Of a DNA stretch of 43,161 nucleotides, positions 3,193 through 41,506 are shown piece by piece. Position 1 is the stretch's first letter. Every line of letters begins with the position of its first letter. The translations under genes and the position numbers were made by a program. The DNA comes from Chloroflexota bacterium (GTDB taxonomy: Bacteria; Chloroflexota; Dormibacteria; Aeolococcales; Aeolococcaceae). The notes beneath the pieces are model-generated. The model saw nothing but the letters and a program-made list of their open reading frames with translations. It did not search any database and was not told where the DNA came from. The DNA lies in assembly GCA_028287625.1 (NCBI GenBank), contig JAQBPH010000285.1, forward strand, positions 1-43,161. The letters are read 5' to 3'.

Positions 3193-4101
3193 ATGAGACT
3201 GGGACTTCAGGTACCGAGCTTCACCTGGCCGGACGGCCACGAGCACATCGGCGAGAACTTCGCGCGCATCGCCGAGCGCGCCGAGGAGGCCGGGCTCACC
3301 AGCCTGTGGGTGATGGACCACCTCTTCCAGATCCAGATGATCGGGCCGCCCGAGCAGGAGATGCTGGAGGGCTGGACGGCGCTCGCGTTCGCCGCCGCGC
3401 GCACCAGCCGCATCCGCCTGGGGACGATGGTCACCGGGGTCACCTACCGCTATCCCGGGGTGCTGGTGAAGATCGCCACCACCCTCGACGTGCTCTCCGG
3501 CGGCCGCTCCTACTTCGGCATCGGCGCCGCCTGGAACGAGGAGGAGCACCGCGGGCTGGGCATCCCCTACCCCCCGCTCGGCGAGCGCATGGACCGGCTC
3601 GAGGAGACCCTGCAGATCGCCCGGCAGATGTGGGCGGGCGACGACCGGCCGTACCACGGGAAGCACTACCAGCTGGAGCGCCCGCTGTGCTCGCCCCCGT
3701 CGATCCAGCGCCCGCACCCGCCGATCCTCGTCGGCGGCGGCGGCGAGCGCCGGACGCTGCGGATGGTGGCCCAGTACGGCGACGCATGCAACCTCTTCTC
3801 CTTCGGCGACCTGGCCCTGCTCGACCACAAGCTGGCGGTGCTCCGCGGGCACTGCGAGGCGGTGGGGAGGCCCTACGCCGACATCGAGAAGACCAGCCTC
3901 GGCACCATCCACCTCACCCGCGACGGTCGCGACGGCAGCATGGACGCCGCCGCCGCCATCCAGTACTTCGAGACCCTCGCCGAGCGCGGCATCGACCACG
4001 CCATCTTCAACATGCGCAACGTGACCGAGGCGGAGCCCTTCGAGGTGCTCGCCGCCGAGGTGATCCCCGCGGTCACGAAGCTGCCGGTGGCGGGGCGGTA
4101 G
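3193..4101 (+). CDS. luciferase-like monooxygenase (LLM) class F420-dependent oxidoreductase (Rv1855c-like by eye)
   Basis: 302 aa starting MRLGLQVPSFTWPDG, with LWVMDHLFQ, GTMVTGVTYRYPGVLVK and FGIGAAWNEEEH as in LLM/F420 enzymes. It is divergent from the hydrolase across a 60-nt spacer. Confidence 0.85.
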   Translation: MRLGLQVPSFTWPDGHEHIGENFARIAERAEEAGLTSLWVMDHLFQIQMIGPPEQEMLEGWTALAFAAARTSRIRLGTMVTGVTYRYPGVLVKIATTLDVLSGGRSYFGIGAAWNEEEHRGLGIPYPPLGERMDRLEETLQIARQMWAGDDRPYHGKHYQLERPLCSPPSIQRPHPPILVGGGGERRTLRMVAQYGDACNLFSFGDLALLDHKLAVLRGHCEAVGRPYADIEKTSLGTIHLTRDGRDGSMDAAAAIQYFETLAERGIDHAIFNMRNVTEAEPFEVLAAEVIPAVTKLPVAGR

Positions 4102-10424: not shown

Positions 10425-10910
10425 ATGGGGATCGAGAGCTTCGAGGCCCTCATCCAGCCCCTGTACAGGGAGGCCTTCCGCCTCGCCTTCGCAATGCTCC
10501 AGAACGTCGCGGACGCAGAGGATGCCGTGCAGGACGCGACGATCCGCGCGTGGAGGAGCCTCCCTCGCTTCCGTGCGGGCGAGGACGTCCAGCCCTGGTT
10601 CCTGACGATCGTCGCCAACCGTTGCCGGACCCGACGCCGGGCCGCGCGCGCTCGCCTCCGCGAACTGGCCGGCGCGAGCTACGAGGATCGGTGGCCATCC
10701 TGGCTGGAGGAGCGAGGAGACCTCCATCGGGCAATTCGCAGCCTGGACCCTGTGTCCCGCCTCGTCGTCGTGCTTCGCTACTACTGCGACCTTTCCTACG
10801 ACGACGTGGCCGCCATCTCGGGCCTGTCGACCACCGCGGCGCGCGCGCGCGTGTCGCGAGCTCTGCGACGGCTTCGTGGCCACCTCATTGTGTCGGGGGT
10901 GACCGCGTGA
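10425..10910 (+). CDS. ECF-type RNA polymerase sigma-70 family factor
   Basis: 161 aa. Region 2 (AEDAVQDATIRAWRSLPRFRAGEDVQPWFLTIVANRCR) and region 4 (LDPVSRLVVVLRYYCDLSYDDVAAISGLSTTAARARVSRALRRLR) are both present. Confidence 0.9.
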   Translation: MGIESFEALIQPLYREAFRLAFAMLQNVADAEDAVQDATIRAWRSLPRFRAGEDVQPWFLTIVANRCRTRRRAARARLRELAGASYEDRWPSWLEERGDLHRAIRSLDPVSRLVVVLRYYCDLSYDDVAAISGLSTTAARARVSRALRRLRGHLIVSGVTA

Positions 10911-15441: not shown

Positions 15442-15601
15442 CCATCCCGTGATGCACTTCCGGCAGCTCCTGTCCACTCCCGTCGCCCCCTGTCGATCCA
15501 GCCCCTCCGAGTGTCGACAGGAGAGCCACAGAGCGCCCCCTGTGGCGCCCCACCGAGGTTCGCCACCCGAAGCATATCGAGGCGACGCACTGCGGCGACT
15601 G

Positions 15602-15772
15602 GTCCCAGTCGGCCAAAGAGGGGCCGACATCCGCGACTCCGGGGACAGGGCTCCAGGCGGGAGCGTCATCCCATGATGGCATCCATCCCCGAGGCGGACA
15701 ACATGGGGTGGCAAAGTTTGTCCAGAAGGACATGACCTCACAATTTGCGTTCCCCTAATCTCGCGATCACCC
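15602..15772. repeat. copy 1 of a ~170-nt conserved intergenic element (core 15696-15737)
   Basis: It aligns with 38565-38736 in the same orientation. The core is 36/42 identical, including the exact 16-mer TGTCCAGAAGGACATG. It contains the inverted repeat TGTCC-AGAA-GGACA plus an upstream GGACAAC. Confidence 0.7.
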
Positions 15773-16033
15773 AGGGAGAACCGCAGGTCCCAGGGAGAGC
15801 ACAGCGAGACGACCTTCGCTCACGTTGCGTGCGTGAGACGAAGCCGCATCGGGGGTCACGGAGGTTCTGTGTATTCGGAGGCAGGCTCAGTTGTGACGAC
15901 AGTCGTGGCAGCCCAGGTGGGTATGGAGGTGGCTACTGAGAAATAGCGACTCCGAACGTCGAGCCAGAAGCCACCTGCGCGCAAACATCAGACGTTGCGC
16001 TTTAGGCCGAACTGACAAGGAGGCGGGATAACA

Positions 16034-17722
16034 ATGGAGCGTGCGCACAGACGCACCCTCTCGGTACACGGGCGCTGGGCCGTCGCAGGGGCGGCCCTGG
16101 CCATTGCGGCCGCTGCGTGCGGCGGCGGTAATGGTTCCGCGTCCCTGACGGGTCAGGGTACGGGACGGGGTCAGTACAGCAGCGGCGGTGCTCAGGGGGC
16201 TCCCGGTGCCGCAGAGGCGGCCCCGGCTGCTCCGGGTGCCCCGGCCCCGGCTGCTCCGGGAGCAGCGCAGGCGGCCCCGGTTGCCCCAGGTGGCGCGGCC
16301 GGATACGCTGCACCAGGCAGCTCTGTCCAGGGTGCTGCTCCGGCGGCACAGCCCGGTGCGGCGAAGAATCAGCTGCCCAACCCGGTCGGTGGCCAGGGGG
16401 CCGCAGGCGCGGCTGGCAGCAAGGCCAGTGCACCCGGCGCCTCTGACGTCGGCGTCACGGCAGCCACGATCACGCTGGGTCGAATCGACTTCGAGTCCGC
16501 GACCCGGAGCCTGGGCTCGATCATCGCTGAGCCGAGCACCGTCGTCGAGCAGGGCATCGTCGACTGGATGAACCAGCAGGGTGGGATCAACGGCCGCAAG
16601 CTCGTCCTGCTCAAGTGCGACGACGGCGGTGACATGACCCGCGCGGTGGCCTGCTACCAGAAGATGAAGAGCCAGGTCTTCATGTTCATGCCCTCCGAGA
16701 CGTGGCTCACCGAGATCGCCCACCAGTATGTCGACCGGGACAAGGTCCCGATGATGACCTGGGGGTGGTTCCTCAGCGAGTTCACCGATCCCTACATGTT
16801 CCCCTGCCACGCCAACGGGGAGCACGAGGCCGTTGCCGAGACCAACTGGGTCCTCGCCCACAAGCAGATCAAGACGGCGGGCATCGTGTACCTGAACGTG
16901 ACCGAGGACATCAACGCGGCGAACGCGTCGGCGAAGATCCTCGAGGATCACGGCGTCAAGGTCGTCCAGAAGATCCCCCAGGAGTGGGACTCCCCGGACG
17001 AGTCGCAGCATGTGCTGGCGCTGCGCGTCGCCAATCCTGATATCGTCTTCGGCTTCAGCTGGCCGGGACCGAATGCCAAGCTCCTGCACGACGCGGATGA
17101 GCAGCACTGGGCTCCCGCCAATGGCTACTATCTCAATCATCTGACCCTGGATCCGGGCTACGGTCCCGTGTACGGGAGCTACATCAAGGGCAAGGTCACC
17201 GCGATCACGTCCTTCGTATACCCGCCCGATGCGGCTCCCGGCAACAGCTTCTGGGAGATGATCACCAAGAACTTCGGCGGATACAACCTCGAGGGCCTCC
17301 GCTGGAAGTATGCGGCCGGGCACCACGTCACCCAGGGCTCGGTGGCCTGCATGCGGATCGCATTCAACGTCCTCAAGGAGCTGGGGCCGAACCCCACCCG
17401 TGCGGCGTTCATCGACTACCTCGAGTCCCACCAGTTCGACTCCGGCATGGGTATCGTCATGCGCTGGCCGAAGGGCAACCACAACATGGACCCCTACGCC
17501 TACAACCGTGAGTACCTGTACCAGTGGGTCGACAGCACCGTCGCGGGCCCCGGCGGCAACGGCGGCTACGACGAGCAGCGGATCCTTCCCGACCCGGTCT
17601 ACCGGCCGGAGATCGAGCCGTGCAAGTCCCCGAAGGTCGAGGAGTGCCGGCCCATGCAGGAGCCGGGGTCCATCCTCCACGGAGCAGGGCTCTACTACCA
17701 CGATCAGCCGTACTACAACTGA
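16034..17722 (+). CDS. Liv/amide-type ABC transporter substrate-binding lipoprotein (type-I periplasmic binding fold) with a long Ala/Pro/Gly linker
   Basis: AAGGAGG lies about 8 nt upstream of the ATG. It has a signal peptide and lipobox (LAIAAAACGGG) and a ~120-aa low-complexity A/P/G linker. The binding domain follows (ITLGRIDFESATRSLG.., GGINGRKLVLLKCDDGGD, GIVYLNVTEDINAANASAKILEDHGVKVV). Liv-type permease genes follow. Confidence 0.9.
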   Translation: MERAHRRTLSVHGRWAVAGAALAIAAAACGGGNGSASLTGQGTGRGQYSSGGAQGAPGAAEAAPAAPGAPAPAAPGAAQAAPVAPGGAAGYAAPGSSVQGAAPAAQPGAAKNQLPNPVGGQGAAGAAGSKASAPGASDVGVTAATITLGRIDFESATRSLGSIIAEPSTVVEQGIVDWMNQQGGINGRKLVLLKCDDGGDMTRAVACYQKMKSQVFMFMPSETWLTEIAHQYVDRDKVPMMTWGWFLSEFTDPYMFPCHANGEHEAVAETNWVLAHKQIKTAGIVYLNVTEDINAANASAKILEDHGVKVVQKIPQEWDSPDESQHVLALRVANPDIVFGFSWPGPNAKLLHDADEQHWAPANGYYLNHLTLDPGYGPVYGSYIKGKVTAITSFVYPPDAAPGNSFWEMITKNFGGYNLEGLRWKYAAGHHVTQGSVACMRIAFNVLKELGPNPTRAAFIDYLESHQFDSGMGIVMRWPKGNHNMDPYAYNREYLYQWVDSTVAGPGGNGGYDEQRILPDPVYRPEIEPCKSPKVEECRPMQEPGSILHGAGLYYHDQPYYN

Positions 17723-17863: not shown

Positions 17864-18748
17864 GTGGCAATCCTGATCTCCGCCTCGTTCATCGGGCTGA
17901 TGTTGGGCACCGTCTATGCCCTCATGGCGTTCGGAATCGTTGCGTGCTATCGGATCAGCCGTGTCGTGAACCTGGGAATAGCTGGGATTGCGGCGTGGTG
18001 CGCCGGTGCGTATTGGTGGATGGCCGACAAGTGGGGGGCGCCCCTCGTGGTCGCGCTCATCGTGGCGATCCTCATCGGGACGGCGATGGGCGGGCTGTTG
18101 GGCGTGATGGTGGTGCGCATGAAGAGGTGGCCGGTGGGCCTGCTCATGATCATCACGCTGTCCGTCAGCCTTCTGCTCTTCTGGCAGTCCGACACCTGGC
18201 TGCCGTCCTTCAACCCCACGGTCCCCTCACCCTTCGGAGAGGGCGGGTTCAGCCTGTTCTATGCGCAGGTCAACTGGTCCGACGTGGGGACCTTCCTGAC
18301 CTGCCTGCTGGTGGTGGGCCTGTTGACGGTGCTCATGCGCATGACCCGCTTCGGACTGTTCACGCGGGCCATCTATGACGATCCGCCGGGAGCGGCGACC
18401 CTGGGGATCCCCTTCAATGTGGCGGTCGTCGGCATGTGGGCCCTGGGTGGGGCGCTGGCGGCGCTGGGAGGGGTGCTGGTGACGCATCGCAGCCTGCTGC
18501 AGTCGGACCTGCTCCTCTTCATCGCCGTGTGGGGGCTGGCGGCTGCAACGCTCGGTGGGCTGGAATCGTTCGTCCTGGCCTTCGTCGGAGGGCTCTCGCT
18601 CGGCATCGCCGAGGGGGTCGTGGGCGGAGACTTCGGCTCGTCGCTGCCGCCGGGCGTCGAGAACCTTGCCTCGGTGGCGGTGATGGCGGCTGCGGTTCTG
18701 TACGCGGGCATCAAGCGTCGCGGTCAGATTACGGAGGTGACGGCGTGA
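17864..18748 (+). CDS. branched-chain-amino-acid-type ABC permease, LivH-like
   Basis: 294 aa with a GTG start. It reads GTVYALMAFGIVACYRISRVVNLGIAG, MRMTRFGLFTRAIYDDPPGAATLGI and GGLESFVLAFVGGLSLGIAEG. Confidence 0.9.
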   Translation: MAILISASFIGLMLGTVYALMAFGIVACYRISRVVNLGIAGIAAWCAGAYWWMADKWGAPLVVALIVAILIGTAMGGLLGVMVVRMKRWPVGLLMIITLSVSLLLFWQSDTWLPSFNPTVPSPFGEGGFSLFYAQVNWSDVGTFLTCLLVVGLLTVLMRMTRFGLFTRAIYDDPPGAATLGIPFNVAVVGMWALGGALAALGGVLVTHRSLLQSDLLLFIAVWGLAAATLGGLESFVLAFVGGLSLGIAEGVVGGDFGSSLPPGVENLASVAVMAAAVLYAGIKRRGQITEVTA

Positions 18749-19890
18749 AGACCTCGACGGTCGAACCGGGCACCGCGCCCCATACCGACACTGTGAGTGC
18801 GCCGCCAGCGAGTTCGGCGGTGGCGAGCCGTGCTGCCGGTCTCAGGAACTTCACCGATCGCCTGGACCGCCGGCTGGAGCGCCTGCGCCGGGGCCATTCG
18901 TGGACAGAGCTGCGACTGCCCATTCTCTGCGTGGTCCTCGCCGTCGGGGGCTTCCTCCTCCTTCCCGACGATTTCCTGTACGCGGGTGCGACAGCGCTGT
19001 CGTCCGGCGTCATTGGGATCGGCCTCTTCTTTCCCATGGCCACGCTGCGTGAGCTGTCGCTCAACGCCGCGGGACTGGCGGGGGTGTCGGCGTACACCTA
19101 CGCGCACCTCGCATCGAGCGGCACGGCGTCGAAGGGCGTCGGTGGGATCATCAACGGCCTGATCGTGGCCGTGCTCGCCGTGATGAGTATCTCGGTGATC
19201 GGCGGTCTGGCGGCGCTGGTGGTGACCGGGCTGTACTTTCTCGTCGCGTCGCTGGTCATCCAGGCGGCGATCGAGAAGGTGGCCTTCTCCATCTCCGGGT
19301 TCACCGGTGGTGCGGCCGGCTGGTTCGTGCCCCAACCCGATCTCGGCACCGGCTGGTTCGACACCAGCCGGGCGGTGTACCTCATCGTGGCGGCGGTGAC
19401 GCTGGCGGCGACGTGGATCACCTACCGTGTGTTGCGGTCGCGGTTTGGCATGCACGCGACCGTGGTCGGCCAGGTGCCCGAGGGTGCCACCGCCGTGGGG
19501 CTGCGGAACTGGCTGCTGAAGCTCTCTGTGTTCGCCTACGCGGGTGCGCTGATCGCTCTGGGCGGCATTCTGCTCGCCTTCTCGAATGGCACCCCGCCGG
19601 CGACGGCCCGGTTCGGTCTGGTGTGGTCGGTCATCTACCTGGCAATCCCGATCGCCAGCGGCCTGAAGGATCTGTCCGGCGTGTTGCTGATGGCGGTGAT
19701 CTTCACCGTCACCCCCATCGTGATCGAGCCGTGGAATGTCGCGCCGAACCTGGTGTCGGGAATGATCCTCCTGGTGGCGACGATCCTCGGCTTCTACCGC
19801 GGGCGGTGGTGGACGATCATCAGGGACACCTACTGGAGGATTCGTGGGGTGACCCCGGCTGCGGCGACGGCCGCGGTGGAGGGCGCATGA
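18745..19890 (+). CDS. branched-chain-amino-acid-type ABC permease, LivM-like
   Basis: The GTG overlaps the LivH stop (GTGA). 381 aa. It reads LNAAGLAGVSAYTYA, FSISGFTGGAAGW, RSRFGMHATVVGQVPEGATAVGL and LSVFAYAGALIALGGILLAF. Confidence 0.9.
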   Translation: MKTSTVEPGTAPHTDTVSAPPASSAVASRAAGLRNFTDRLDRRLERLRRGHSWTELRLPILCVVLAVGGFLLLPDDFLYAGATALSSGVIGIGLFFPMATLRELSLNAAGLAGVSAYTYAHLASSGTASKGVGGIINGLIVAVLAVMSISVIGGLAALVVTGLYFLVASLVIQAAIEKVAFSISGFTGGAAGWFVPQPDLGTGWFDTSRAVYLIVAAVTLAATWITYRVLRSRFGMHATVVGQVPEGATAVGLRNWLLKLSVFAYAGALIALGGILLAFSNGTPPATARFGLVWSVIYLAIPIASGLKDLSGVLLMAVIFTVTPIVIEPWNVAPNLVSGMILLVATILGFYRGRWWTIIRDTYWRIRGVTPAAATAAVEGA

Positions 19891-23511: not shown

Positions 23512-25086
23512 ATGCGCAGCGCGCGCAGGAGCAGGAGCATGAGCAGCACACGGAAGTGGTTGCGCATCGCGCTGGTGGGCGGCCTTGGTGCCGTTGGACT
23601 GGCGCTGGCACTCCAGCTCGCCGCCCCCCACCGGGTGCAGGCGCACGCCCGACTGACGGGCGTGCAGCCTGCCCCCAACTCGACCGTGCCAGGACCCCTG
23701 AAGCAGGTGCTGGTCCAGTACAACGAGCCCGTCGACAAGGACCTGTTCCGCGCCGAGGTGGACGCGAAGGAGGGGTCGGCGTTGGCGGGAAAGCCCGTCT
23801 TCGTCGACCCCAGGACGGTCTCGCTCCCGCTGCGCAGCGGCGTGTCGGGGGCACTGGTGGTCACCTGGCTGGCGGTGGGCCTCGATGCGCATCCGGTCCA
23901 GGGGCAGTTCCTGCTCGGTGTCAGTGCCCCGGGTGGGGCGGCGGCACTCCAGAAGGACCTCACATCGGCGGCGTCGCACCTCGGCGATTTCGAGAGCGGT
24001 GCCGGCAGCGGGGGTCTGCTCGCCGCCATCGAGGCGGGGAGGGCGGTGGAGATCGGCCTGCTCTACCTGACCCTTGGCATCGTGGCGCTCGGAATCCTGA
24101 CACTGGGGCCGCGCCGCCGCGCCAGGGGCGCCCCGTCCGGTGCGATGAGGATGGCCAGCGTGGGTGCCATGAGCATCGTGGTCCCCACGGTGCATCGAGG
24201 GTACCGAGCCCTGCTGGCCGCGAGCGTGGGCTCGGCGCTGCTGATGCCCCTCCTCTTCGCCCTGTATGCAAGCCGGCTCACGCAGGTGATCTCCGGAATC
24301 GGCGTCGGGCGCGTCATGTTCTCGTCGATCGGGGTGCAGTGGACGGTCAAGCTGGTTCTCTGGGCAGCCCTGGCTGCGGTGGTGACCGTGGGGATCCGAC
24401 ACACAGCGCAGGGGCGGCAGCTGGACCGCCGGCTCATCCTGGCCCCGGTGGTGCTCGCGCTGGCGCTGGCCGGGGCCTTCGTCAGCGGGACCCACGTCGG
24501 CACCGGGAGCGCCGACCCGAGCCTGCTGTACATCCCCGTGATGGCCGGCCACATCCTGCTGACCGCATTCTGGGCGGGCGGGCTGTTCGCCCTGCTGGTG
24601 CTGGTCTTCCCGATGGGTGACGCCACGTACGTCTGGGCGGTGATCGGTCGCTTCTCCCGGGTCATGACCGTGACCGCGGGAATCATGGTGGCGAGCGGGG
24701 TGGTTGTCCTGGTGAGGCTGCTGGCGAACTTCAACGCGCTCTGGTGTACCGGCTACGGGGTGACGGCGGGCTTCAAGGTGCTGATCGTGACCCTGGCCCT
24801 GAGCGTTGGGCTCGTGAACAACCGGCTCGTGGCTGCTCACCGGAACTACGAGGCACTCCCCGCCGTGACCCGCCAGCGGCTGCGGCGAGGCGGACCGTCG
24901 CTGGTGCTGATGCGGCGTGTCGTCCTCTGCGAGGCAGCCCTGCTCCTCGGCGTCCTCGTGCTGGCGGCGGTCCTCGGGGAGTCTCAGCTGCCGCCGCTGT
25001 TGAGAAACGTCTACCTCCCCGGCGAGGGGCAGGACGCCGGGTATGTCACAACCTCCGGGCTGTTCGGATCAGGCTGCATCAGGTAG
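23512..25086 (+). CDS. CopC-CopD fusion protein (YcnJ-like copper-handling membrane protein)
   Basis: GGAGGAGG lies 6 nt upstream of the ATG. The signal peptide ends VQA/HARLTGVQPAPNSTV, the CopC N-terminal His start, followed by an Ig-like domain. About eight TM helices follow, with CopD-like HILLTAFWAGGLFALLV and FSRVMTVTAGIMVASGVV. Confidence 0.85.
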   Translation: MRSARRSRSMSSTRKWLRIALVGGLGAVGLALALQLAAPHRVQAHARLTGVQPAPNSTVPGPLKQVLVQYNEPVDKDLFRAEVDAKEGSALAGKPVFVDPRTVSLPLRSGVSGALVVTWLAVGLDAHPVQGQFLLGVSAPGGAAALQKDLTSAASHLGDFESGAGSGGLLAAIEAGRAVEIGLLYLTLGIVALGILTLGPRRRARGAPSGAMRMASVGAMSIVVPTVHRGYRALLAASVGSALLMPLLFALYASRLTQVISGIGVGRVMFSSIGVQWTVKLVLWAALAAVVTVGIRHTAQGRQLDRRLILAPVVLALALAGAFVSGTHVGTGSADPSLLYIPVMAGHILLTAFWAGGLFALLVLVFPMGDATYVWAVIGRFSRVMTVTAGIMVASGVVVLVRLLANFNALWCTGYGVTAGFKVLIVTLALSVGLVNNRLVAAHRNYEALPAVTRQRLRRGGPSLVLMRRVVLCEAALLLGVLVLAAVLGESQLPPLLRNVYLPGEGQDAGYVTTSGLFGSGCIR

Positions 25087-25095
25087 GCGACGAGG

Positions 25096-26265
25096 ATGGC
25101 GAGGAAAGGCTCCGGTTGGAAGCGCCGGGACAGGCAGAGGGAGAGGCAGGGGGCGCCTCCAGCACCGCCCTCGACGGCAGAGGCAGCAGCGCCCGAGCGC
25201 CGCCATCGCCGGAGCGCGGTGGCGGCTGCGATCGCAGGAGCCCTCGCGGTGGTGGGCCTGAGCGTCGTCCTCATCGTGCGCGGGACCACCCGCCAGGACG
25301 CGGTCCCCGGATCGCCAGGCGCTGCGTCGGCGGGCTCGTATCGCGTCGTCTACCGGGTGGACGACAGCGTGGACTCGCAGTCCCAGGCCCAGACGGAGAC
25401 CGATGTCCTCGACGTGGAGCGACCCGATCATCTGCGCCTCGAGCATCGTGAGGGCCCGCCCCCCGGTGGCCGTCTGCTCGGGGGCAGCGTGGTGAACCGG
25501 CAGGACAGCATGAACCTGCCCGACGATTACGCGGTATCGGCGACACCCCGGACCATCCCCAACGAGCTGCAGATCTACTCGGAGCCGGTCCTGCGGGCCG
25601 CGGTCCAGGCGGGAAAGGCGGAGAGCCTGGGGACGGCGACGGTGATCGGCCGCCAGTGTATCCGGTATCTGTATCGGAACTTCGGGAACGAGGCCCTGAG
25701 CAGGGGGAGTGACCAGGACCATGTGGAGACCTGCGTCACCACGGACGGCGTCATGCTTCGCGAGGCGATCACCGCCGGCGGCCGCCAGGTGCGCCTGCTG
25801 CAGGCGGTCGACCTCGATCGGGCACCGCACTTCGCATCGGACACCTTCCTCTCGACGGACAAGAAACCGAACCCTCTCGCCGACACCGAACAGGTCACCG
25901 AGGGGCCACCAGACAGTGAGGCCAAGGTCGTGCGCGGGCCGGCACCCACAGGATTGCAGATGGACTGGAACGTGACCGAGGTCCTTCGAGACAGCGGGCA
26001 GGGCCTGGCGCTGCCCTTCTACATGGAGCGCTTCACCAACGGTGCAGACTTCGTGGTCACTGAGCAGTCTCTCCATGGTGTGGCCGAGGTGCCCTGGACC
26101 ACGACCGGCGGAGACGAGGTGGACCTGGGTGGCGGCAGAAGGGGCAGGCTCCTCTATCACACCGGCTACGTCGAGGTGCAGACCGCCGTCTCCAATTCCG
26201 CGGTCCGTGTCCTCGCCTCTCGTCCGGACCTGGCTCTCTACGAGGCCGAGAGGCTTCACACGTAG
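25096..26265 (+). CDS. hypothetical membrane-anchored protein, paralog 1 (389 aa)
   Basis: It starts 9 nt after the CopCD stop. It has a basic N-terminus, the TM helix AVAAAIAGALAVVGLSVVLIV and an extracytoplasmic domain. It aligns with the next gene (YRVVYRV..TETDVL[DE]VERPD[HR]LRLEHREG.PPGGRLL.GS.VN ... GKAESLG ... LYHTGYVEVQT...VRVLASR..LAL.EAERL.T). Confidence 0.7.
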   Translation: MARKGSGWKRRDRQRERQGAPPAPPSTAEAAAPERRHRRSAVAAAIAGALAVVGLSVVLIVRGTTRQDAVPGSPGAASAGSYRVVYRVDDSVDSQSQAQTETDVLDVERPDHLRLEHREGPPPGGRLLGGSVVNRQDSMNLPDDYAVSATPRTIPNELQIYSEPVLRAAVQAGKAESLGTATVIGRQCIRYLYRNFGNEALSRGSDQDHVETCVTTDGVMLREAITAGGRQVRLLQAVDLDRAPHFASDTFLSTDKKPNPLADTEQVTEGPPDSEAKVVRGPAPTGLQMDWNVTEVLRDSGQGLALPFYMERFTNGADFVVTEQSLHGVAEVPWTTTGGDEVDLGGGRRGRLLYHTGYVEVQTAVSNSAVRVLASRPDLALYEAERLHT

Positions 26266-26313
26266 TCAGAGCATCGCGCGGTCCGCAGAAGGTGTCGCTG
26301 AGGAGTGGACAGA

Positions 26314-27288
26314 GTGCCCCCTGCTGATGGACATCCACGCCGGAACATCGGTGCCATCCTCTGCGTTCTCATCACCGCGAGCGGCCTGTGCCTCGCGGTC
26401 TTCCTTCTCCTCATCCGCCAGGGTGAGGAGGACCCGGAGCGACCGGCGGTGACTCCGGCGCCGGCGTATCGCGTCGTCTACCGCGTGGTCGACAGGGTGA
26501 GCGTTGATCAGCGGGTGCGGGGCACCACCGAGACGGACGTCCTGGAGGTGGAACGACCGGACCGGCTCCGTCTCGAGCACCGTGAGGGTCTGCCTCCGGG
26601 TGGGCGCCTGCTCGAGGGGAGCATCGTGAACGGGCGGTTCACCATGACCTTCCCCGACGAGGTCGCGCACGCCTTCTCCCCTCTGACGGTGCTCTCGGAG
26701 CCGAGGCTGTTCTCGGAGCCGGCGCTCCGCGCAGCGGCCGATGCGGGGAAGGCGGAGAGCCTGGGCCGGAGCTCGATCATGGGGCAGCCGTGCAATCGAT
26801 ACCGCTATCGCCATTTCGGAGGCGAGAGCCTGAGCGAAGGCGACGGACAGGAGCACGTGGACACCTGTGTCACTCCCGACAGCATCATGCTGCGGGAGGC
26901 GATCGAGTTCTCCGGCCGTGAGGTTCGCGTGAGCGAGGCCGTTCAGCTGGACCGTGCGCCCCACTTCGCGCAGGACACGTTCGTCGCCACCGGTGGCCAG
27001 GGGGATTTCCATGGCCAGCTGACGTGGCCGTACTCCATCGAGAGGTTCACCAGAGGGGGAGAGTTCGTCGCGTCGGAGCAGTTCCTCGTCCGCGATGTGG
27101 CCGGACACGTCTGGGACAGCACGGGCTCCTCCCCGATCGATCTGGGGATCGTGAAGGGCAGCATTCTGTATCACACGGGGTACGTCGAGGTACAGACGAG
27201 CGTCGATGGTGCCCAGGTGCGAGTGCTCGCCTCACGACTTCAGCTGGCTCTCAACGAGGCTGAGAGGCTCTACACCCGAGGGCGGTGA
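26314..27288 (+). CDS. hypothetical membrane-anchored protein, paralog 2 (about 324 aa)
   Basis: The GTG at 26314 lies 8 nt after AGGAG; the track start GTG at 26305 is the alternative. The TM helix is IGAILCVLITASGLCLAVFLLLI. By eye it is roughly half identical to paralog 1 but lacks a ~60-aa internal segment. The 3' end overlaps the convergent gene by 38 nt. Confidence 0.7.
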   Translation: MPPADGHPRRNIGAILCVLITASGLCLAVFLLLIRQGEEDPERPAVTPAPAYRVVYRVVDRVSVDQRVRGTTETDVLEVERPDRLRLEHREGLPPGGRLLEGSIVNGRFTMTFPDEVAHAFSPLTVLSEPRLFSEPALRAAADAGKAESLGRSSIMGQPCNRYRYRHFGGESLSEGDGQEHVDTCVTPDSIMLREAIEFSGREVRVSEAVQLDRAPHFAQDTFVATGGQGDFHGQLTWPYSIERFTRGGEFVASEQFLVRDVAGHVWDSTGSSPIDLGIVKGSILYHTGYVEVQTSVDGAQVRVLASRLQLALNEAERLYTRGR

Positions 27289-31485: not shown

Positions 31486-31609
31486 GGGCCGCTCTGCCGA
31501 AGTGGCCGAGAGCATACCACGCCAGAATCGGACGTCACTCCGCCATGGCCCGTCGGAGTAAACACCGGTCCGGAAATTGGCGGGAGGGGACAGGTATTCC
31601 GCCTGCTCG

Positions 31610-32506
31610 ATGGATAGGCTCGACCGGGTGTCCATCTTCCTGTCGGCTCTGATCATCGGCCTGACATTCGGTGCCGTCTACGGGCTGATGGCCTTCGGCA
31701 TGGTCGCCTCCTACCGGATCACCGGTATCATCAACATGGGCCAGGCGGGCATCGCAGCTCTGAGCGCCGCGCTCTACTGGAAGGTGGCCGCGGTCTGGGG
31801 CGTCCCCAGGATCGTCTCCGCTCTCGGCGCGATCGTCATCGGCGGGCTGCTGGGGGCGATCATCGGCTACATCGCCCTCAAGGTCAGCTGGCCGAAGGTC
31901 GTCACCATGATCTTCACGCTGGCGATCACGTTCCTGCTCTTCACGTGCTCGGAGCTCACCACCACCCTGTACAACCAGTCCGGGGCGACGGTGTTCGGGG
32001 ACAGCGGGTTCGACGTCGGCTACACCTACGTCACGCTGGATCAGATCGGCAGCTTCATGACGTGTCTGGTCGTGGTGCTGCTGACCACATGGGCGCTCCG
32101 CAGGACGCGCTTCGGCCTGTTCGTGCGCGTGATCTACGACGACCCCGTGGTGGCGGCGACATTGGGCATCCCACTGCCCGGCTATGTCGTCAGGGTGTGG
32201 GCGATCGCAGGGTGCCTCGCTGCGCTGGCGGGGATGCTGGTGAGCATCCGCACCTCCCTTGATCCCACCATGATCCTCTTCGTCATGGTGTGGGGGCTGG
32301 CCAGCGCCGTGCTCGGCGGTCTGGAGTCCTTTGCCCTGGCGTTCGCCGGTGGGCTGACCCTCGGTATCTCACAGGGACTCCTGGGCGGCATGCTGTCCGG
32401 AGTTCTCGGGCCGGGGATGGAGAACCTGACCGCGATCCTGATCGTGGCCATCGGGGTGCTGTACATGGGCAGGAAACGGCGACATCTCGCTCACCTGCAG
32501 AACTGA
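31610..32506 (+). CDS. LivH-like ABC permease, paralog B
   Basis: 298 aa from the ATG at 31610; a TTG at 31577 is also possible. It aligns along its length with the 17864-18748 product (GAVYGLMAFGMVASYRITGIINMGQAG, RRTRFGLFVRVIYDDPVVAATLGI, GGLESFALAFAGGLTLGISQG). Confidence 0.85.
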   Translation: MDRLDRVSIFLSALIIGLTFGAVYGLMAFGMVASYRITGIINMGQAGIAALSAALYWKVAAVWGVPRIVSALGAIVIGGLLGAIIGYIALKVSWPKVVTMIFTLAITFLLFTCSELTTTLYNQSGATVFGDSGFDVGYTYVTLDQIGSFMTCLVVVLLTTWALRRTRFGLFVRVIYDDPVVAATLGIPLPGYVVRVWAIAGCLAALAGMLVSIRTSLDPTMILFVMVWGLASAVLGGLESFALAFAGGLTLGISQGLLGGMLSGVLGPGMENLTAILIVAIGVLYMGRKRRHLAHLQN

Positions 32507-32515
32507 GGAAGGTCG

Positions 32516-35083
32516 GTGACTCCCCAGTCGATCCCCGCCCTCCTCGTCGCGCTGCTGGGGGTGGGCGCCTTCTTCCTCCTTCCGGACTACCTGCTCTACG
32601 CCGCGTCCGCGGCCCTGGTGTCCGGGCTCATCGGTCTGGGCCTGTACCTGCCCATGGCCTCTCTTCGGGTGATGCCCCTCAACACCGCCGGCACGGTGGG
32701 GCTGGCGGCATTCCTGTTCGCCCAGTTCACATCCCATGGCGGGGTGGGGAGCTACGTGCTCGGCGCCATTCTCGGGCTGGGATCGGCGGTGGGCGTCTCG
32801 ATGCTCACCGGGCTGGCCTCGCTGGCGGTGACCGGCCTCTACTTCGTGGTCGCATCGCTGGTGGTCCAGCTGGGCATCGAGAAGGTGGCGTTCTCGATCC
32901 CCAGGATCACCGGAGGGGCCGAGGGGTGGACCGTGGGGCAGCCCGTGCTCGATGGCTGGCTCGACACCCAGCGTGCGATCTACCTGATCACCGGCGCGGT
33001 GGTGCTGTGCATCGCGCTCACGGTGCGGGCCTGGATGAGGACGCGGTTGGGCTTCCAGGCCATGCTCGTCGGCCATCAGCCTGACGGCGCCTCGGCGGTG
33101 GGGCTGCGCAACTCCCTGATCAAGTTGCTCGTGTTCGGCATCAGCGGGCTGGTGATCGGTCTCGGCGGGCTGCTCACCGCCTTCGTGAACGGGACGCCGC
33201 CGCCATCGGGGATCTTCTTCGGTGTGATCGTCTCGGTGATCTACCTGGCGATCCTCCTCGCCAGCGGGATGCGTCAGCTGTCCTCGATCTGGCTCGTGGC
33301 AGCGGCGTTCACCGCCATCCCCATCCTGCTCGAGCGCTTCCATCTATTCCCCGACTTCGTGGTCGGCTGCATCCTGCTCAGCGCGATCCTGTTTGGCCAG
33401 AACCAGAACTGGATCGCCATCCAGGCCCGGCGCCTGGGCCGGCGTGCACGCCCGGTCGGGACGGCCCGCGTGGCGGCCCGGGACTTCGTCACGCTCGACC
33501 GGACACGGGTGAGCCCCGGACCTCCGGAGACGGAGGCCGATCGGCTTCCACTCGTCGCGCTCGAGGGCAGGGACATCACCGTGGACTTCGGCGGTGTTCG
33601 CGCCCTCGACGCGGTGAGCGTGCGCGTGCTGCCCGGGCAGCGGGTCGGCATCGTGGGAGCGAACGGTGCAGGCAAGACCACTCTGGTCAATGCTCTGACC
33701 GGCTTCGTATCACCGCAGCAGGGAAGAGTGCTGCTCGGTTCCCGAGACATCACCACCTGGGCGCCCCGTGCTCGCGCCCGCGCCGGCATCCTGCGCACCT
33801 TCCAGTTCCCGACCCTCGCGGACGTGCTCACCGTGGAGCAGAACGTGGTCTGCGTGCACGGGTACGACAAGGCGCGCCATCGCGATCGCGTGAGCTGGCT
33901 CCTGGAGAGGTTCCAGCTCGATGCCCGCCGCGCCACGCCGGTGGCGGCGCTCTCCTTCGGCCAGCGGCGCAAGCTGGAGCTCGTGCGTGCGCTGGCGACG
34001 AGTCCCCAGGTGCTGATTCTCGACGAGCCGACCGGCGGGCTCATGGACGAACAGGCCGACAACCTCGCCGAGGTCCTGCTCCAGCTGCAGGCGATCGATG
34101 GCTGGGGACTGCTCATCATCGAGCACAATCCCCGAGTCCTCACCGCACTGTCCCAGCATCTCATCGTGCTCGAGAACGGCCGGCTGCTCGTCGAGGGCCC
34201 CACCGACGCGGTCATCAGGCAGGAGGAGGTGCGGCGCGTCTATCTCGGCACGAACGTGGATGAGGTCCGGGCACCTCGGCACGCAGCCCTGGCTCCGCGG
34301 GCGGAGACGCGGGTCTCGGTCACGTCCGCCGTCAGGGGGACCGCGGCCGGGCACGAGGGCGGTGGCCTTCAGGTCCGCGATCTCCACCTGAGCTACGGCC
34401 CGATGCCGGTGCTGCGCGGTGTGAGCCTCGACTGCCGCCCGGGACGCATCGTCGGGGTGGTCGGCGGGAACGGCGTGGGCAAGACCAGCCTGCTGTCAGG
34501 GATCGCCGGTGTGGTGAGGACGTCCGCAGGGTTGGTGCACCTGGACGGAGAGGACATCTCGCACTGGCCCGCGTACCGCCGTGGCCAGGCCGGCATGGTG
34601 ATGATCGCTGAGCGCCGCCGCGTGCTCCCGTCGCTGTCCGTCAGGGACAACCTCCATGCGGGCGGCTGGGGCCTCGACAGGGCCGAGGTGGAGGCGCGCG
34701 TCGACCGCGTCCTCGAGCTGTTCCCGCCCATCGCCGAACGCCTGACGGTGCCCTCGTATCGCCTCTCCGGTGGCGAGCAGAGAATGGTCTCCATCGGCCG
34801 TGCCCTGGTCACCGGCGCCCGTTGCCTCCTCTTCGACGAGTTCTCCCTGAGCCTCTCGCCGCGGATGGTCGGCGAGCTCACGGAGATCATCCAGGCCCTG
34901 GCCGACGAGGGTCGGATCATCCTCCTCGTCGAGCAGTACATCGGGGTGCTGCTCGAGATCGCCGACACGATCCACGTGCTCGAGCGGGGGCGGTTCGTGT
35001 TCGGTGGTCCCAGCGAGGAGGCCGCCCAGTGGCTCGAGCATCACGGCTACCTGGCTCAGGCGCAGGGCGAGCCGATCCGCTGA
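32516..35083 (+). CDS. single-ORF LivM-LivG-LivF triple fusion (permease plus two ABC ATPase domains), 855 aa
   Basis: A GTG follows GAGGAAGG. Residues about 1-330 are LivM-like (FSIPRITGGAEGW, RTRLGFQAMLVGHQPDGASAVGL). Residues about 350-600 are LivG-like (GANGAGKTT, FGQRRKLELVRAL, LILDEPTGGL, IIEHN, RRVYLG). Residues about 625-855 are LivF-like (GGNGVGKTS, LSGGEQRMVSIGR, LLFDEFSLSLSP, LLVEQY, QWLEHHGY). All lie in one frame with no stop. Confidence 0.85.
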   Translation: MTPQSIPALLVALLGVGAFFLLPDYLLYAASAALVSGLIGLGLYLPMASLRVMPLNTAGTVGLAAFLFAQFTSHGGVGSYVLGAILGLGSAVGVSMLTGLASLAVTGLYFVVASLVVQLGIEKVAFSIPRITGGAEGWTVGQPVLDGWLDTQRAIYLITGAVVLCIALTVRAWMRTRLGFQAMLVGHQPDGASAVGLRNSLIKLLVFGISGLVIGLGGLLTAFVNGTPPPSGIFFGVIVSVIYLAILLASGMRQLSSIWLVAAAFTAIPILLERFHLFPDFVVGCILLSAILFGQNQNWIAIQARRLGRRARPVGTARVAARDFVTLDRTRVSPGPPETEADRLPLVALEGRDITVDFGGVRALDAVSVRVLPGQRVGIVGANGAGKTTLVNALTGFVSPQQGRVLLGSRDITTWAPRARARAGILRTFQFPTLADVLTVEQNVVCVHGYDKARHRDRVSWLLERFQLDARRATPVAALSFGQRRKLELVRALATSPQVLILDEPTGGLMDEQADNLAEVLLQLQAIDGWGLLIIEHNPRVLTALSQHLIVLENGRLLVEGPTDAVIRQEEVRRVYLGTNVDEVRAPRHAALAPRAETRVSVTSAVRGTAAGHEGGGLQVRDLHLSYGPMPVLRGVSLDCRPGRIVGVVGGNGVGKTSLLSGIAGVVRTSAGLVHLDGEDISHWPAYRRGQAGMVMIAERRRVLPSLSVRDNLHAGGWGLDRAEVEARVDRVLELFPPIAERLTVPSYRLSGGEQRMVSIGRALVTGARCLLFDEFSLSLSPRMVGELTEIIQALADEGRIILLVEQYIGVLLEIADTIHVLERGRFVFGGPSEEAAQWLEHHGYLAQAQGEPIR

Positions 35084-37483: not shown

Positions 37484-38002
37484 TCATCGTAGCGGCTCCG
37501 AGCTGTCCCCCGTGCCGCTCCACCCTGTGATCAGGCCGGCCACGGGCTGTGAGCGGCCATCCTGTGCCGATCCGACGGCCGCTCCGTCCCGGTCGCCATG
37601 CAGCAGCCGCAGGCAGGCCACCCGATTCACCGCGACCGAGCAGTTCGTCGCTGCCTCTCGGGATTGGACGAGGGCGCTGCCGCTGTTCATGCGGACGATG
37701 TAGGTACTGCCGGTATCGTGGCTCGACGAGTCGGCGTGAAGGACGACGATTTCGGTCGTGCCTCCCGCGGCACTGGCGGTCAGCGCGTCGCTCTGGCTGG
37801 AGGCCGCCGACCTCCCTCCCACCGCGTCCGCATCGCTTCGTGCGTCTCCGGCGCTGAGGTGGAGCAGGCTGGGATCGACGAGGACCAGGTCGGCCAGCGT
37901 CGCCTCCGTATGAGCGCCGGACCTGGTGTCGGAGGCCCAGCTTCTCACCTGCCAGCGGTCGATCGCCAGACGCAGGAGCGGATTGGCGGGAAGAGAGACC
38001 AT
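37484..38002 (-). CDS. hypothetical protein (172 aa)
   Basis: ATG-start ORF with reasonable third-position GC. It has no signal peptide and no recognised motif. It is convergent with the discoidin gene across an 11-nt gap. Confidence 0.4.
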   Translation of the reverse strand: MVSLPANPLLRLAIDRWQVRSWASDTRSGAHTEATLADLVLVDPSLLHLSAGDARSDADAVGGRSAASSQSDALTASAAGGTTEIVVLHADSSSHDTGSTYIVRMNSGSALVQSREAATNCSVAVNRVACLRLLHGDRDGAAVGSAQDGRSQPVAGLITGWSGTGDSSEPLR

Positions 38003-38165
38003 GGCGCCATCGTCGTATCCGTTGGCAGGAGCCTGCCCTTCGTAGGCCGGCTCACTGAGCAGGCGCGTTCCGCGGGCCTCCCCACCAGACTGATTCGGCT
38101 CGTGTCAGAGCCCTGTCATGGGCGGTGGGAGCCAGGCGCGATTCCCTGTCCTCCTGGACAGCGGA

Positions 38166-38199
38166 CGAAGGAGGGCCCGAGCGTTCGGGCCCTCCTTCG
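38166..38199. terminator. strong GC-rich hairpin (15-bp perfect stem, 4-nt loop) downstream of the Pro-rich gene
   Basis: CGAAGGAGGGCCCGA-GCGT-TCGGGCCCTCCTTCG lies 25 nt past the stop at 38224. There is no U-tract, as is common in high-GC actinobacteria. Confidence 0.55.
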
Positions 38200-38223: not shown

Positions 38224-38454
38224 TCAGTGCGCCTGGTATCCCCCGGGGGAAGGGCTGGGGCTTGGGATGCTCGGCCCGGCCGGAAGGGGAAGGGGAAGCG
38301 GCGGCGGATCCTGGGGCGACGCGGGCGACGCCTGCGCCGCCGCGGCCGGAACGGCGTGATCCGTGAACATCCGCGGAGAGACGGGAGCGATGAGCAGGGC
38401 CCCCGCGACAGCGCCCACGACCAGAGAGCGAACCCGGAGATGTCGGTGAGTCAT
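38224..38454 (-). CDS. small secreted proline-rich protein (76 aa)
   Basis: AGGGAGGAAGG lies 7 nt upstream of the ATG. It has a signal-like N-terminus (RSLVVGAVAGALLIAPVSP) and the mature part SPASPQDPPPLPLPLPAGPSIPSPSPSPGGYQAH. Confidence 0.55.
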   Translation of the reverse strand: MTHRHLRVRSLVVGAVAGALLIAPVSPRMFTDHAVPAAAAQASPASPQDPPPLPLPLPAGPSIPSPSPSPGGYQAH

Positions 38455-38564
38455 CGAAAACCTTCCTCCCTGCAGAGTCGCCCCGCCGTCAGGTCAACTC
38501 CTCCCAGCCCTCGACGTTGATATCGGCGGGTTTCAGTATCGGCGCCCCGGAAGGCCACAGGCTA

Positions 38565-38736
38565 GTCCGACAGGGCCAAGTGTGGGGCCGGCCTCGCGTA
38601 CCCCAGGGACAGGGTGCGCGACGGTGCGGTCGCGTGTCCGACAGCACCCATCCCACAGGGGACAACGTGGGAGGGGAAAGTCTGTCCAGAAGGACATGCC
38701 CCCCTGATCTCGCATCGCCTACTTTCGCGATCGCCC
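38565..38736. repeat. copy 2 of the ~170-nt conserved intergenic element (core 38660-38701)
   Basis: See copy 1. It has the same orientation and the exact 16-mer TGTCCAGAAGGACATG. Relative to copy 1 it carries a 15-nt insertion and lacks a 14-nt segment. Confidence 0.7.
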
Positions 38737-38771: not shown

Positions 38772-39860
38772 ATGAAGGCGATTCCCTGTCCTGTGTGGCG
38801 AGGCGCGCACCGGCAACTCCCGATGGGGGTGGTGGCACTGGGTGTGGGGGCGCTCGTCGGTGCGTGCGGAGGCGACACCAGCGTGGACACCCCAGGGACC
38901 TCGGCGGCGCAGAGCACCAGCGCGATGATGTCGACGAGCAGCGGTCCGGTCGTCAACCACGTTCACGGCGCCGTCATGGGTGTCACGCCAAGCCAGATCC
39001 TTCTGGGGACGCATTACGGCCTCGAGGTCAGCAACGATCTGGGGACGACCTGGCAGCCCGTCCCTTCGGTGGCAGGCGACTCGGTCGCCGCCATCATCAG
39101 GCTTCCCACCGACTACGTCGGTGCCTTCGAGCCCATGAGCGCGACCGGCCGGATGGCGGGCCCGGCATATGTCATGTACTCGAGCGATGGCCAGAACTGG
39201 ACACGAGCGACGGGCCTCGCTCCCGGCTCCATCAGCAACCTGGTGGCCGCGGACAGTGGGCTGGGAGCCTGGGCATCGGTCACCAACGTCGGTATCTTCC
39301 ACAGCGTCGATGGGGGTCACACCTGGAGCGTCGTGCTTCCCACGACCAAGATCCTGACCGCTCTCGAGCAGGTTGGACGGAACCTGGTCTTCACGACCCA
39401 GGACGGGATCGAGGTCACCTCCAGCACCGGCGCGAGCATGCCCGCGAGCCCCGTCCTCACCCAGGCGATGAACGACATGTCTCCCTGGTCGGCGTGCCCG
39501 ACCTGTCTCCTGGCCACGCTGGCCAGTGGGGACATCGCCACGAGCCGGGACGCGGGCCACACCTGGGAGACGACCAGGACCGGCCACGCGTTCGACAGGG
39601 TCACATCGTTCCCTGGTCTGGGCACGACGCTCTTCGGCATGGTCGCAGCGCCGGTCGCGACGGATCAGGGGCTGTGGCGGTCGACGGACACAGGCCACAC
39701 CTGGACATCGGTGATCAAACAGCCCAACGTCGACGGGATGCTCGACGTCCGAGGCTCGGCGCCGGCACTGCTCGCCTTTCAGTGGGGCATCACGGTGTGG
39801 CGGTCCGCGGACGCGGGTGCGACCTGGGCCAGGCTCTCCTCGCTGACGGGTGCGATGTGA
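38772..39860 (+). CDS. BNR/sialidase-like (Ycf48-like) beta-propeller lipoprotein
   Basis: GGAGG lies about 10 nt upstream of the ATG at 38772. The lipobox is GALVGACGG. Repeated S.D.G.TW units are present (SNDLGTTWQ, SSDGQNWT, SVDGGHTWS, SRDAGHTWE, STDTGHTWT, SADAGATWA). The propeller starts with an HVHG motif. Confidence 0.8.
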   Translation: MKAIPCPVWRGAHRQLPMGVVALGVGALVGACGGDTSVDTPGTSAAQSTSAMMSTSSGPVVNHVHGAVMGVTPSQILLGTHYGLEVSNDLGTTWQPVPSVAGDSVAAIIRLPTDYVGAFEPMSATGRMAGPAYVMYSSDGQNWTRATGLAPGSISNLVAADSGLGAWASVTNVGIFHSVDGGHTWSVVLPTTKILTALEQVGRNLVFTTQDGIEVTSSTGASMPASPVLTQAMNDMSPWSACPTCLLATLASGDIATSRDAGHTWETTRTGHAFDRVTSFPGLGTTLFGMVAAPVATDQGLWRSTDTGHTWTSVIKQPNVDGMLDVRGSAPALLAFQWGITVWRSADAGATWARLSSLTGAM

Positions 39861-40603: not shown

Positions 40604-40886
40604 AGGGTGGACCCGCCCCGGTCTGATGGTGAAGTCCACCGCCGATCCTGACGGGTGCGCAGGGCATACGCGAATTCGGACCTGCTCACCCTTACACGCC
40701 CTGACATGCTTCCGCCGTCGTGGCGAGGCGGAGCGCAGGCGATCTGATACACATCCGGTCGTCCTGACCCGCTCGGGCCAGACGTCGCGAAACATTCTGT
40801 ACCTGGAGGACAGCCTCACGGCTCCTCAGCGAGCCTATGCTCCAGACTGCCGCCGTAGGAGACGACGGGTGGGTGGGAGAGCCGGG

Positions 40887-41501: not shown

Positions 41502-41506
41502 CCGGG

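Follow-up and report, generated by a model that had tools for sequence, protein, structure and literature searches.

A repeated intergenic element with GGAC/GTCC boxes as a probable bidirectional promoter/operator of an EtnR-like regulon in a soil bacterium

The window analysed here is a complete contig of 43,161 bp (JAQBPH010000285.1; 69% G+C) from a soil metagenome-assembled genome (MAG), and it carries an intergenic element of about 170 nt twice in the same orientation, at 15602-15772 (copy A) and at 38565-38736 (copy B). An earlier note, made from the letters of the DNA, had reported the repeat, and pairwise alignment found both segments at the positions and in the orientation that it gave. 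Comparison with homologous copies in other contigs led us to read the element as a bidirectional, activator-dependent promoter/operator of an EtnR-like regulon, acting at two operons in the window, with a rough probability of 0.6.

The element and its gene neighbourhood

To the right of copy A, on the plus strand, lies a gene for a Peripla_BP_6 substrate-binding lipoprotein (PBP; 16034-17722), followed by genes for two BPD_transp_2 permeases, two ATP-binding cassette (ABC) ATPases and one uncharacterised protein, then by a CopC-CopD fusion gene (23512-25086) and genes for two paralogous uncharacterised proteins. To its left, on the minus strand, is the gene for a Gly-rich secreted protein (ATG 15441). 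Copy B is followed by genes for a BNR/sortilin-like lipoprotein (38772-39860) and an alpha/beta hydrolase (39857-40603), then by those for a MEDS protein (40887-41501) and a CdaR/PucR-type regulator (from 41474 to the contig end), and is preceded by an open reading frame (ORF) for a Pro-rich secreted protein of 76 aa on the minus strand (38224-38454). Both copies thus sit in divergent intergenic regions, as had been claimed.

The 42-nt cores of the two copies (15696-15737 and 38660-38701) were, as first described, identical at 36/42 positions, with six mismatches, and had TGTCCAGAAGGACATG in common. A degenerate core pattern matched twice in the window, at copies A and B, with no matches expected from shuffles, and a sequence-only model of 87 nt, built from five homologous copies of the element, scored 72.6 and 68.8 bits at the two window copies against 7.6 bits for the next best match. 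The 14-nt and 15-nt indels described for the downstream flank were wrong; they were a product of the chosen alignment register, because 15696-15772 aligned to 38660-38736 without gaps at 75% identity (family D10) and the orthologous copies in contigs L034 and L002 kept the same ungapped register. The upstream half (15602-15695) aligned to copy B with indels of just 1-2 nt. A small-ORF reading of the core, which would encode MGWQSLSRRT and a stop in copy A and run open into the BNR frame in copy B, was tried and rejected, as the frame was stopped in copy A and in L033 and the substitutions were not codon-like.

The lineage that carries the element is rare, with only 10 homologues of the BNR protein among 5.8 billion proteins. 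Four further copies were found: in L001, a strain of 98% identity in which the element matches copy B in full; in L002, 186 nt upstream of a gene for a BNR protein 67% identical to that of the window; in L034, 298 nt upstream of a gene for a PBP of 82% identity; and in L033, an intergenic match from a metagenome scan. Orthologous copies therefore precede both operon types in related soil metagenome contigs, and the near-identical strains L045-L050 added no variation. L002 keeps the BNR-hydrolase-MEDS-PucR synteny, and its element sits between a Gly-rich gene on the plus strand, of which the 3' end lies to its left, and the BNR gene to its right, leaving no minus-strand gene to drive. Because this left neighbour is the end of a plus-strand gene, the element travels with the plus-strand operon and not with a minus-strand gene. 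To the left of the L034 element lies a homologue of the 76-aa ORF with 50% identity.

Boxes at fixed distances from hexamers on both strands

Five distinct copies were compared (window copies A and B, L034, L002 and L033), and in all of them GGACA-N18-TGTCC-N4-GGACAT was invariant, with most other positions varying; the 4-nt spacer of the palindrome read AGAA, AGAA, GTGA, TGGA and GTTG. In copy A the invariant upstream GGACA box (15696-15700, plus strand) lies 32 bp, or three helical turns, upstream of the promoter-proximal GGACA, and the palindrome TGTCC-AGAA-GGACA occupies 15719-15732. The corresponding features of copy B are a GGACA box at 38660-38664 (plus strand), again 32 bp upstream of the promoter-proximal box, and a palindrome TGTCC-AGAA-GGACA at 38683-38696, the latter located by the core pattern and the five-copy comparison.

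Four of the copies have a TANNNT hexamer whose first letter is exactly 28 nt beyond that of the promoter-proximal GGACA, so that the hexamer fills positions 29-34 counted from the start of the box. It reads TAATCT in copy A (15756-15761, plus strand; first GGACA base at 15728), where it is a predicted -10 hexamer directed toward the PBP/ABC/CopCD operon that starts at 16034, and TACTTT in copy B (38720-38725, plus strand; first GGACA base at 38692), where the predicted -10 faces the BNR lipoprotein and alpha/beta hydrolase genes; L034 and L002 both have TACGCT. Among these four, the 21-nt stretch that separates the hexamer from the GGACATG box diverged freely. The palindrome was absent in the more distant orthologues L003, L004, L006, L035, L036 and L038, and two of these, the PBP orthologues L035 and L036, keep GGGCATGG-N21-TA(C/G)GGT, the T, the A and the final T of the hexamer being invariant across A, B, L034, L002, L035 and L036. 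A strict pattern, GGAC[ACT][AT]G-N21/22-TANNNT, matched seven times in 252 kb (window and loci, both strands), with 0.13 matches expected per 43 kb, and all seven matches were intergenic and oriented toward a gene.

A box and a hexamer held at a fixed distance are the signature of what we take to be a -10 hexamer with its protein-recognition box. The -35 position read only xTGxxx (ATGACC, ATGCCC or ATCCTC), and a scan of both regions for consensus sigma-70 promoters and terminators returned nothing except one unrelated terminator-like site on the minus strand (15947-15966). If transcription starts about 7 nt past the hexamer, as predicted, the palindrome would extend from approximately -49 to -36 with its centre near -42.

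A mirror-image arrangement was found on the minus strand. The outer box of copy A, GGACCAG (15599-15605, minus strand), holds the GTCC at the left end of the alignment in the earlier note, and the homologous box reads GGACTAG in copy B (38562-38568, minus strand, by pattern comparison), in L034 and in Nocardioides JS614. After 21-22 nt this outer box is followed by TATGCT in copy A (15571-15576, minus strand), a strict-pattern match and predicted -10 hexamer facing the Gly-rich secreted protein gene, and by GATACT in L034 and in copy B (38535-38540, minus strand), a predicted -10-like hexamer that in copy B faces the 76-aa Pro-rich ORF; copy B and L034 thus have the same architecture, GGACTAG-N21-GATACT. 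A further GGACA box on the plus strand lies 41 bp from the outer GTCC box in copy A (15643-15647) and 42 bp from it in copy B (38607-38611). The box spacings of 41, 53 and 32 bp are near whole helical turns, which could allow a multimeric regulator to sit on a single face of the DNA. The 170-nt element would correspond, within a few bases, to the spacer between two divergent -10 hexamers, and it would be untranscribed on both strands if the predicted starts are right.

The Joint Genome Institute gene call, for an identical contig from other samples, begins the Gly-rich gene at ATG 15630, inside the element, to give a protein of 455 aa. The shorter gene is favoured by a signal peptide starting at ATG 15441 and by the -10 predicted on the minus strand at 15571-15576. 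At its 3' end the gene overlaps a convergent YncE-like gene by about 100 nt.

The suggestion that the conserved pieces could be operator half-sites was in this way borne out, and the comparison extends it: the GGAC/GTCC boxes form an array, and on each strand a box keeps a fixed distance to a predicted -10 hexamer; a promoter/operator working at the level of DNA is very probably what the element is. That it matches nothing described also holds as far as was checked, in Rfam and in a literature search for the motif string, which returned no papers.

Were the element instead a dispersed repeat of the repetitive extragenic palindromic (REP) or miniature inverted-repeat transposable element (MITE) kind, or the remnant of a recent segmental duplication without a regulatory role, its presence twice in one contig would be in keeping with that, on a copy count that covers the 43-kb contig. 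Yet there are only two copies in those 43 kb, terminal repeats and target duplications were not seen, the copies precede orthologous operons in other genomes, and conservation is patchy, confined to boxes and hexamer at fixed spacing, and not uniform. An exact-pattern scan with AAGTYTGTCCNGRAGGACAT of 185,579 species genomes (a collection without this lineage) returned 21 matches against a chance expectation of about 17, none of them outside unrelated low-GC taxa, and a metagenome scan with GGACA-N13-AAGTNTGTCC-N4-GGACA gave three, at most two of them related: L033 is a clear homologue, L031 is doubtful and L032 is coding or chance. Neither of the two scanned collections contains the MAG itself. 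We regard the repeat explanation as very unlikely.

The earlier note had also proposed an attenuator or riboswitch-like switch with two mutually exclusive helices, namely a cis-regulatory RNA in which, within a 5' leader, the upstream GGACA competes with the hairpin TGTCC-loop-GGACA for one and the same TGTCC. Every copy is able to form either helix (100% of cells paired), and copy B folds somewhat better than its shuffles (z = -2.5), but single-sequence folds of both strands of both copies (z from -0.9 to -2.5) were not unusually stable and had no fold in common. The helices are just 5 bp long, and all 10 of their pairs never vary among the five copies, giving a covariation score of 0, while the loop does vary; the RNAalifold covariation term was unfavourable (+1.16). 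Searches against Rfam returned no hit at gathering score anywhere in the window, and at E up to 10 the two regions yielded nothing beyond noise. Neither a terminator-like site nor sequestration of a ribosome-binding site was found downstream of either copy, the distance from box to start codon is not fixed, ranging from 80 to 306 nt across copies, and, with the conserved TANNNT lying 3' of the hairpin, the predicted plus-strand transcript would exclude the hairpin altogether. This comparison does not support the RNA proposal, which is very improbable.

Much the same applies to a third proposal, that TGGACA-N16-GTTGTCC on the minus strand is a promoter for the secreted low-complexity proteins read by the extracytoplasmic function (ECF) sigma factor encoded at 10425-10910. 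The presence of that sigma factor in the window, the invariance of GGACA-N18-TGTCC and the minus-strand gene to the left of both window copies speak for it. Its -10 triplet, however, reads GTT, GTT, CTT, CCT and CGT across the five copies, the minus strand of L002 offers no target and runs into the 3' end of a plus-strand gene, and the better predicted minus-strand promoter about 125 nt further left, the box-to-hexamer pair with its housekeeping-type -10, would already explain the minus-strand genes. We consider an ECF promoter here very unlikely.

Two further sites in the window resemble parts of the element. A perfect but isolated TGTCC-N4-GGACA palindrome, TGTCCTCCTGGACA, at 38147-38160 has no box-to-hexamer partner, no -10 hexamer being found at the 28-nt spacing on either strand; read along the minus strand, the 76-aa ORF is succeeded by a strong G+C-rich hairpin (38167-38198) and directly after that by this palindrome. 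The palindrome, which L001 has too, lies some 145 nt upstream of an uncharacterised gene for 172 aa (37484-38002). Upstream of the MEDS gene, at 40796-40841 on the plus strand, TGTACC-TGGA-GGACAGC is accompanied by TATGCT starting 28 nt after the first GGACA base, which is suggestive at most of a degenerate third copy; with the sequence model it scored 6.2 bits (E = 0.47), not significant alone. The leaders predicted for the PBP/ABC/CopCD operon (15773-16033; about 265 nt) and for L034 (about 258 nt) have limited similarity to each other, except near the ribosome-binding site. The window also holds a second, paralogous branched-chain-type ABC module (31577-35083), with 70-75% DNA identity in stretches (18510-19729 against 32271-33335), and the paralogues after CopCD are in tandem (25096-26265 and 26305-27288); the element was absent upstream of the paralogous ABC module and of the tandem genes.

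An EtnR1/EtnR2-like regulator pair and the promoter Petn

The MEDS-domain protein encoded downstream of copy B (40887-41501, plus strand), a candidate sensor, aligned along its entire length with EtnR2 of Mycolicibacterium chubuense NBB4 at 48% identity. The CdaR/PucR-type regulator that follows it (41474-43159, plus strand; GGDEF_2 and HTH_30 domains), a candidate DNA-binding activator whose ORF runs to the contig end, was 50% identical over 543 aa to EtnR1 and 54-55% identical to paralogues on pMYCCH.01 and on pNOCA01 of Nocardioides JS614. The recognition helix of its helix-turn-helix (HTH) is nearly the same as that of EtnR1 (HRSTVKYRLQRV in the window regulator, HRSTLKYRLSRI in EtnR1). 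The gene lies 2.8 kb downstream of copy B, and its product and the ECF sigma factor were the only DNA-binding proteins detected in the window. In NBB4 both EtnR1 and EtnR2 are required, EtnR1 being the activator, and the system, whose binding site is unknown, responds to ethylene oxide and has already been used as an ethylene-oxide biosensor (PMC11197473).

The nearest named homologues of the window regulator are on Mycolicibacterium and Nocardioides plasmids and those of the PBP are in Actinomycetota/Acidimicrobiia MAGs; the MAG is labelled Chloroflexi/Chloroflexota in NCBI, a label that may be wrong for this contig.

Petn, the promoter of the NBB4 system, is a 167-bp divergent intergenic region situated 4 kb upstream of the regulators (PMC11197473). 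In its sequence (plasmid pMYCCH.02, NC_018023.1; L039 4467-4633) we found GGACATG-N21-TACCGT toward the catabolic genes and, on the minus strand, AGACAAA-N21-TACCGT toward the coenzyme M genes, and when Petn was compared with its pMYCCH.01 and JS614 equivalents the only conserved blocks were G(G/A)GACATGG and TA(C/G)CGTTC. Two further intergenic regions beside MEDS/PucR genes contained GGACATG-N22-(G/C)A(C/T)GCT, and the MEDS gene of JS614 pNOCA01 is preceded by GGACTAG-N21-TAGCAT, so that the box-to-hexamer architecture recurs specifically beside EtnR1/EtnR2 homologues in three lineages. The seven strict-pattern matches were confined to such intergenic regions. Pairs of GTCC and GGAC boxes 41-42 bp apart were likewise present in the window copies, in L034, in both NBB4 Petn regions and in JS614, the pMYCCH.02 member having a degenerate GTCT. 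A 5' truncation of Petn (80 bp) lost 80% of its activity (PMC11197473); what this truncation removes is exactly the TGTCT box 41 bp upstream of GGACATG.

More distant EtnR1-like genes, of 33-42% identity, on Streptomyces and Arthrobacter plasmids (L042, L043 and L044) stand, one of them with an adjacent MEDS gene, divergent from a plasmid-borne dnaK-grpE-dnaJ-cbpM-clpB chaperone operon. The strict pattern had no match in the intergenic regions of these Streptomyces and Arthrobacter genes, and the Arthrobacter spacer carries a GGACC-N5-GGTCC palindrome. These contexts suggest that this branch has a quite different regulon.

Taken together, these comparisons are consistent with the following model. 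Each copy would be an untranscribed spacer between two divergent sigma-A-type promoters, furnished with GGAC/GTCC activator boxes; a dimeric activator seated on the palindrome near -42 would contact RNA polymerase at a promoter with a poor -35, in a class II-like manner, activating rather than repressing, and the mirror box on the minus strand (GGACCAG or GGACTAG), at the same spacing from a -10-like hexamer, would serve the secreted-protein gene to the left. The most likely candidate for the protein that binds is the EtnR1-like CdaR/PucR regulator, acting with its EtnR2-like MEDS partner, and we judge the chances of this identification to be evenly balanced. In that case a single regulon, presumably responsive to a small organic ligand, would take in both operons (PBP/ABC/CopCD and BNR-lipoprotein/hydrolase) together with the two secreted-protein genes divergent from them.

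A number of observations weigh against this reading. L033 has the boxes and lacks a TANNNT at the 28-nt spacing, the MEDS promoter of L002 itself is without the box, and L035 carries a MEDS gene and no palindrome. The 87-nt model gave no significant hit on the Etn plasmids, where its best match was in a coding region (E = 0.15) and the JS614 site had E = 2.6; with Petn missed by the model, the EtnR link therefore rests on the 7-nt box and its spacing. In the Etn promoters, which read (A/G)(C/T)CC-N5-GGAC, the left palindrome half is a poor match. The published -35/-10 of Petn, TTGTCT-N9-AATAAT, lies elsewhere than the one proposed here, and the inactive -100 truncation of Petn still holds GGACATG-N21-TACCGT (PMC11197473), a result that the present model can accommodate only if activation requires the upstream boxes. 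As to the core promoter, the published TTGTCT/AATAAT was unconserved in the pMYCCH.01 and JS614 equivalents; because GGACATGG-N21/22-TA(C/G)CGT is conserved while the published core is not, the real -10 of Petn may be TACCGT (L039 4605-4610).

The absence of the palindrome from L035 and the failure of the 87-nt model to find Petn would also fit if the DNA is the same promoter/operator and its regulator is another one, for example a copper- or envelope-responsive protein encoded elsewhere, with the EtnR-like pair a coincidental neighbour. A copper theme lends further weight to this alternative and counts against the EtnR assignment: the PBP operon ends in the CopC-CopD fusion, and in L005 (4077-6949) a BNR/sortilin-like homologue stands between CopD and a cupredoxin-like gene. 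Copper operators include the C4/G4 palindromes of CsoR, the TACAnnTGTA of CopY and the MerR-type sites between -35 and -10. These are unlike TGTCC-N4-GGACA, and it is L005 that has, upstream at about 3660-3700, a CsoR-like C/G palindrome, TTGTCCCTAGGGGTCAA, in place of the GGAC-box element. With no further DNA-binding protein in the window besides the ECF sigma factor, and with the box-to-hexamer layout beside EtnR1/EtnR2 homologues in three lineages, we think a different regulator unlikely, though far from negligible, and prefer the EtnR-like regulon.

In L035 (4768-14417) an orthologue of the PBP operon with 59% identity (PBP, ABC, uncharacterised protein and CopC/CopD) is directly followed by a MEDS gene and a gene for a soluble di-iron monooxygenase alpha subunit (Phenol_Hydrox). 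Such an arrangement links the transporter/CopCD module to hydrocarbon oxidation genes.

Implications and relation to known systems

If the EtnR-like reading is correct, the element is not a new RNA class, and the boxes and hexamers would provide the first explicit operator/promoter model for EtnR1/EtnR2-type regulators, with a motif that could guide the redesign of Petn and regulon prediction for many uncharacterised MEDS/PucR pairs in Actinobacteria; an EtnR-type sensor would also be linked to copper import through CopCD in an uncultured soil lineage. A wider and more tentative proposal, to which we give somewhat less than an even chance, is that the GGAC/GTCC array represents the recognition code, and its bidirectional layout the promoter architecture, used throughout the EtnR1/EtnR2 (CdaR/PucR plus MEDS) family, whose members sense small molecules in actinobacteria: GGAC(W)(W)G boxes would face outward at 28 nt from the -10, paired with inner boxes at a distance of 41 bp. 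Were it to hold family-wide, the published Petn core promoter would be mis-assigned, and in this uncultured soil bacterium such a sensor would make a CopCD copper importer, an ABC importer and secreted proteins respond to a signal resembling an epoxide or hydrocarbon. For annotation, the case indicates that a conserved, palindrome-bearing intergenic repeat can be fully explainable as promoter DNA.

Among operators of the PucR HTH family, PMC11197473 cites a single defined one, the PucR box of Bacillus subtilis (WWWCNTTGGTTAA), and reports it absent from Petn. It shares with the element the HTH family of the presumed window binder (HTH_30), but has no sequence similarity to the GGAC/GTCC boxes.

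In class II activator-dependent promoters of the FNR/CRP type, a 5-N4-5 palindrome such as TTGAT-N4-ATCAA is centred at -41.5. The element resembles these in having an inverted repeat of dimer size with a 4-bp spacer about 42 bp upstream of the predicted start, over an apparently weak -35 and with a good predicted -10. Its half-site sequence is a different one, the window has extra in-phase boxes and a bidirectional layout, and no CRP/FNR-family protein was found in the window; the likeness is one of mechanism only.

Petn differs from the element in lacking the TGTCC-N4-GGACA palindrome and the GGACA 32 bp upstream, both of which the window has, in controlling alkene/epoxide catabolism and coenzyme M genes where the window has the ABC/CopCD importer and the BNR lipoprotein, and in its published -35/-10 assignment, which is not the one we infer. 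What the two have in common is a compact intergenic stretch between divergent genes, located a few kb upstream of MEDS and CdaR/PucR regulator genes; a plus-strand GGACATG that starts 28 nt before TANNNT; a mirrored pair of box and hexamer on the minus strand; and, 41 bp upstream, a box resembling GTCC.

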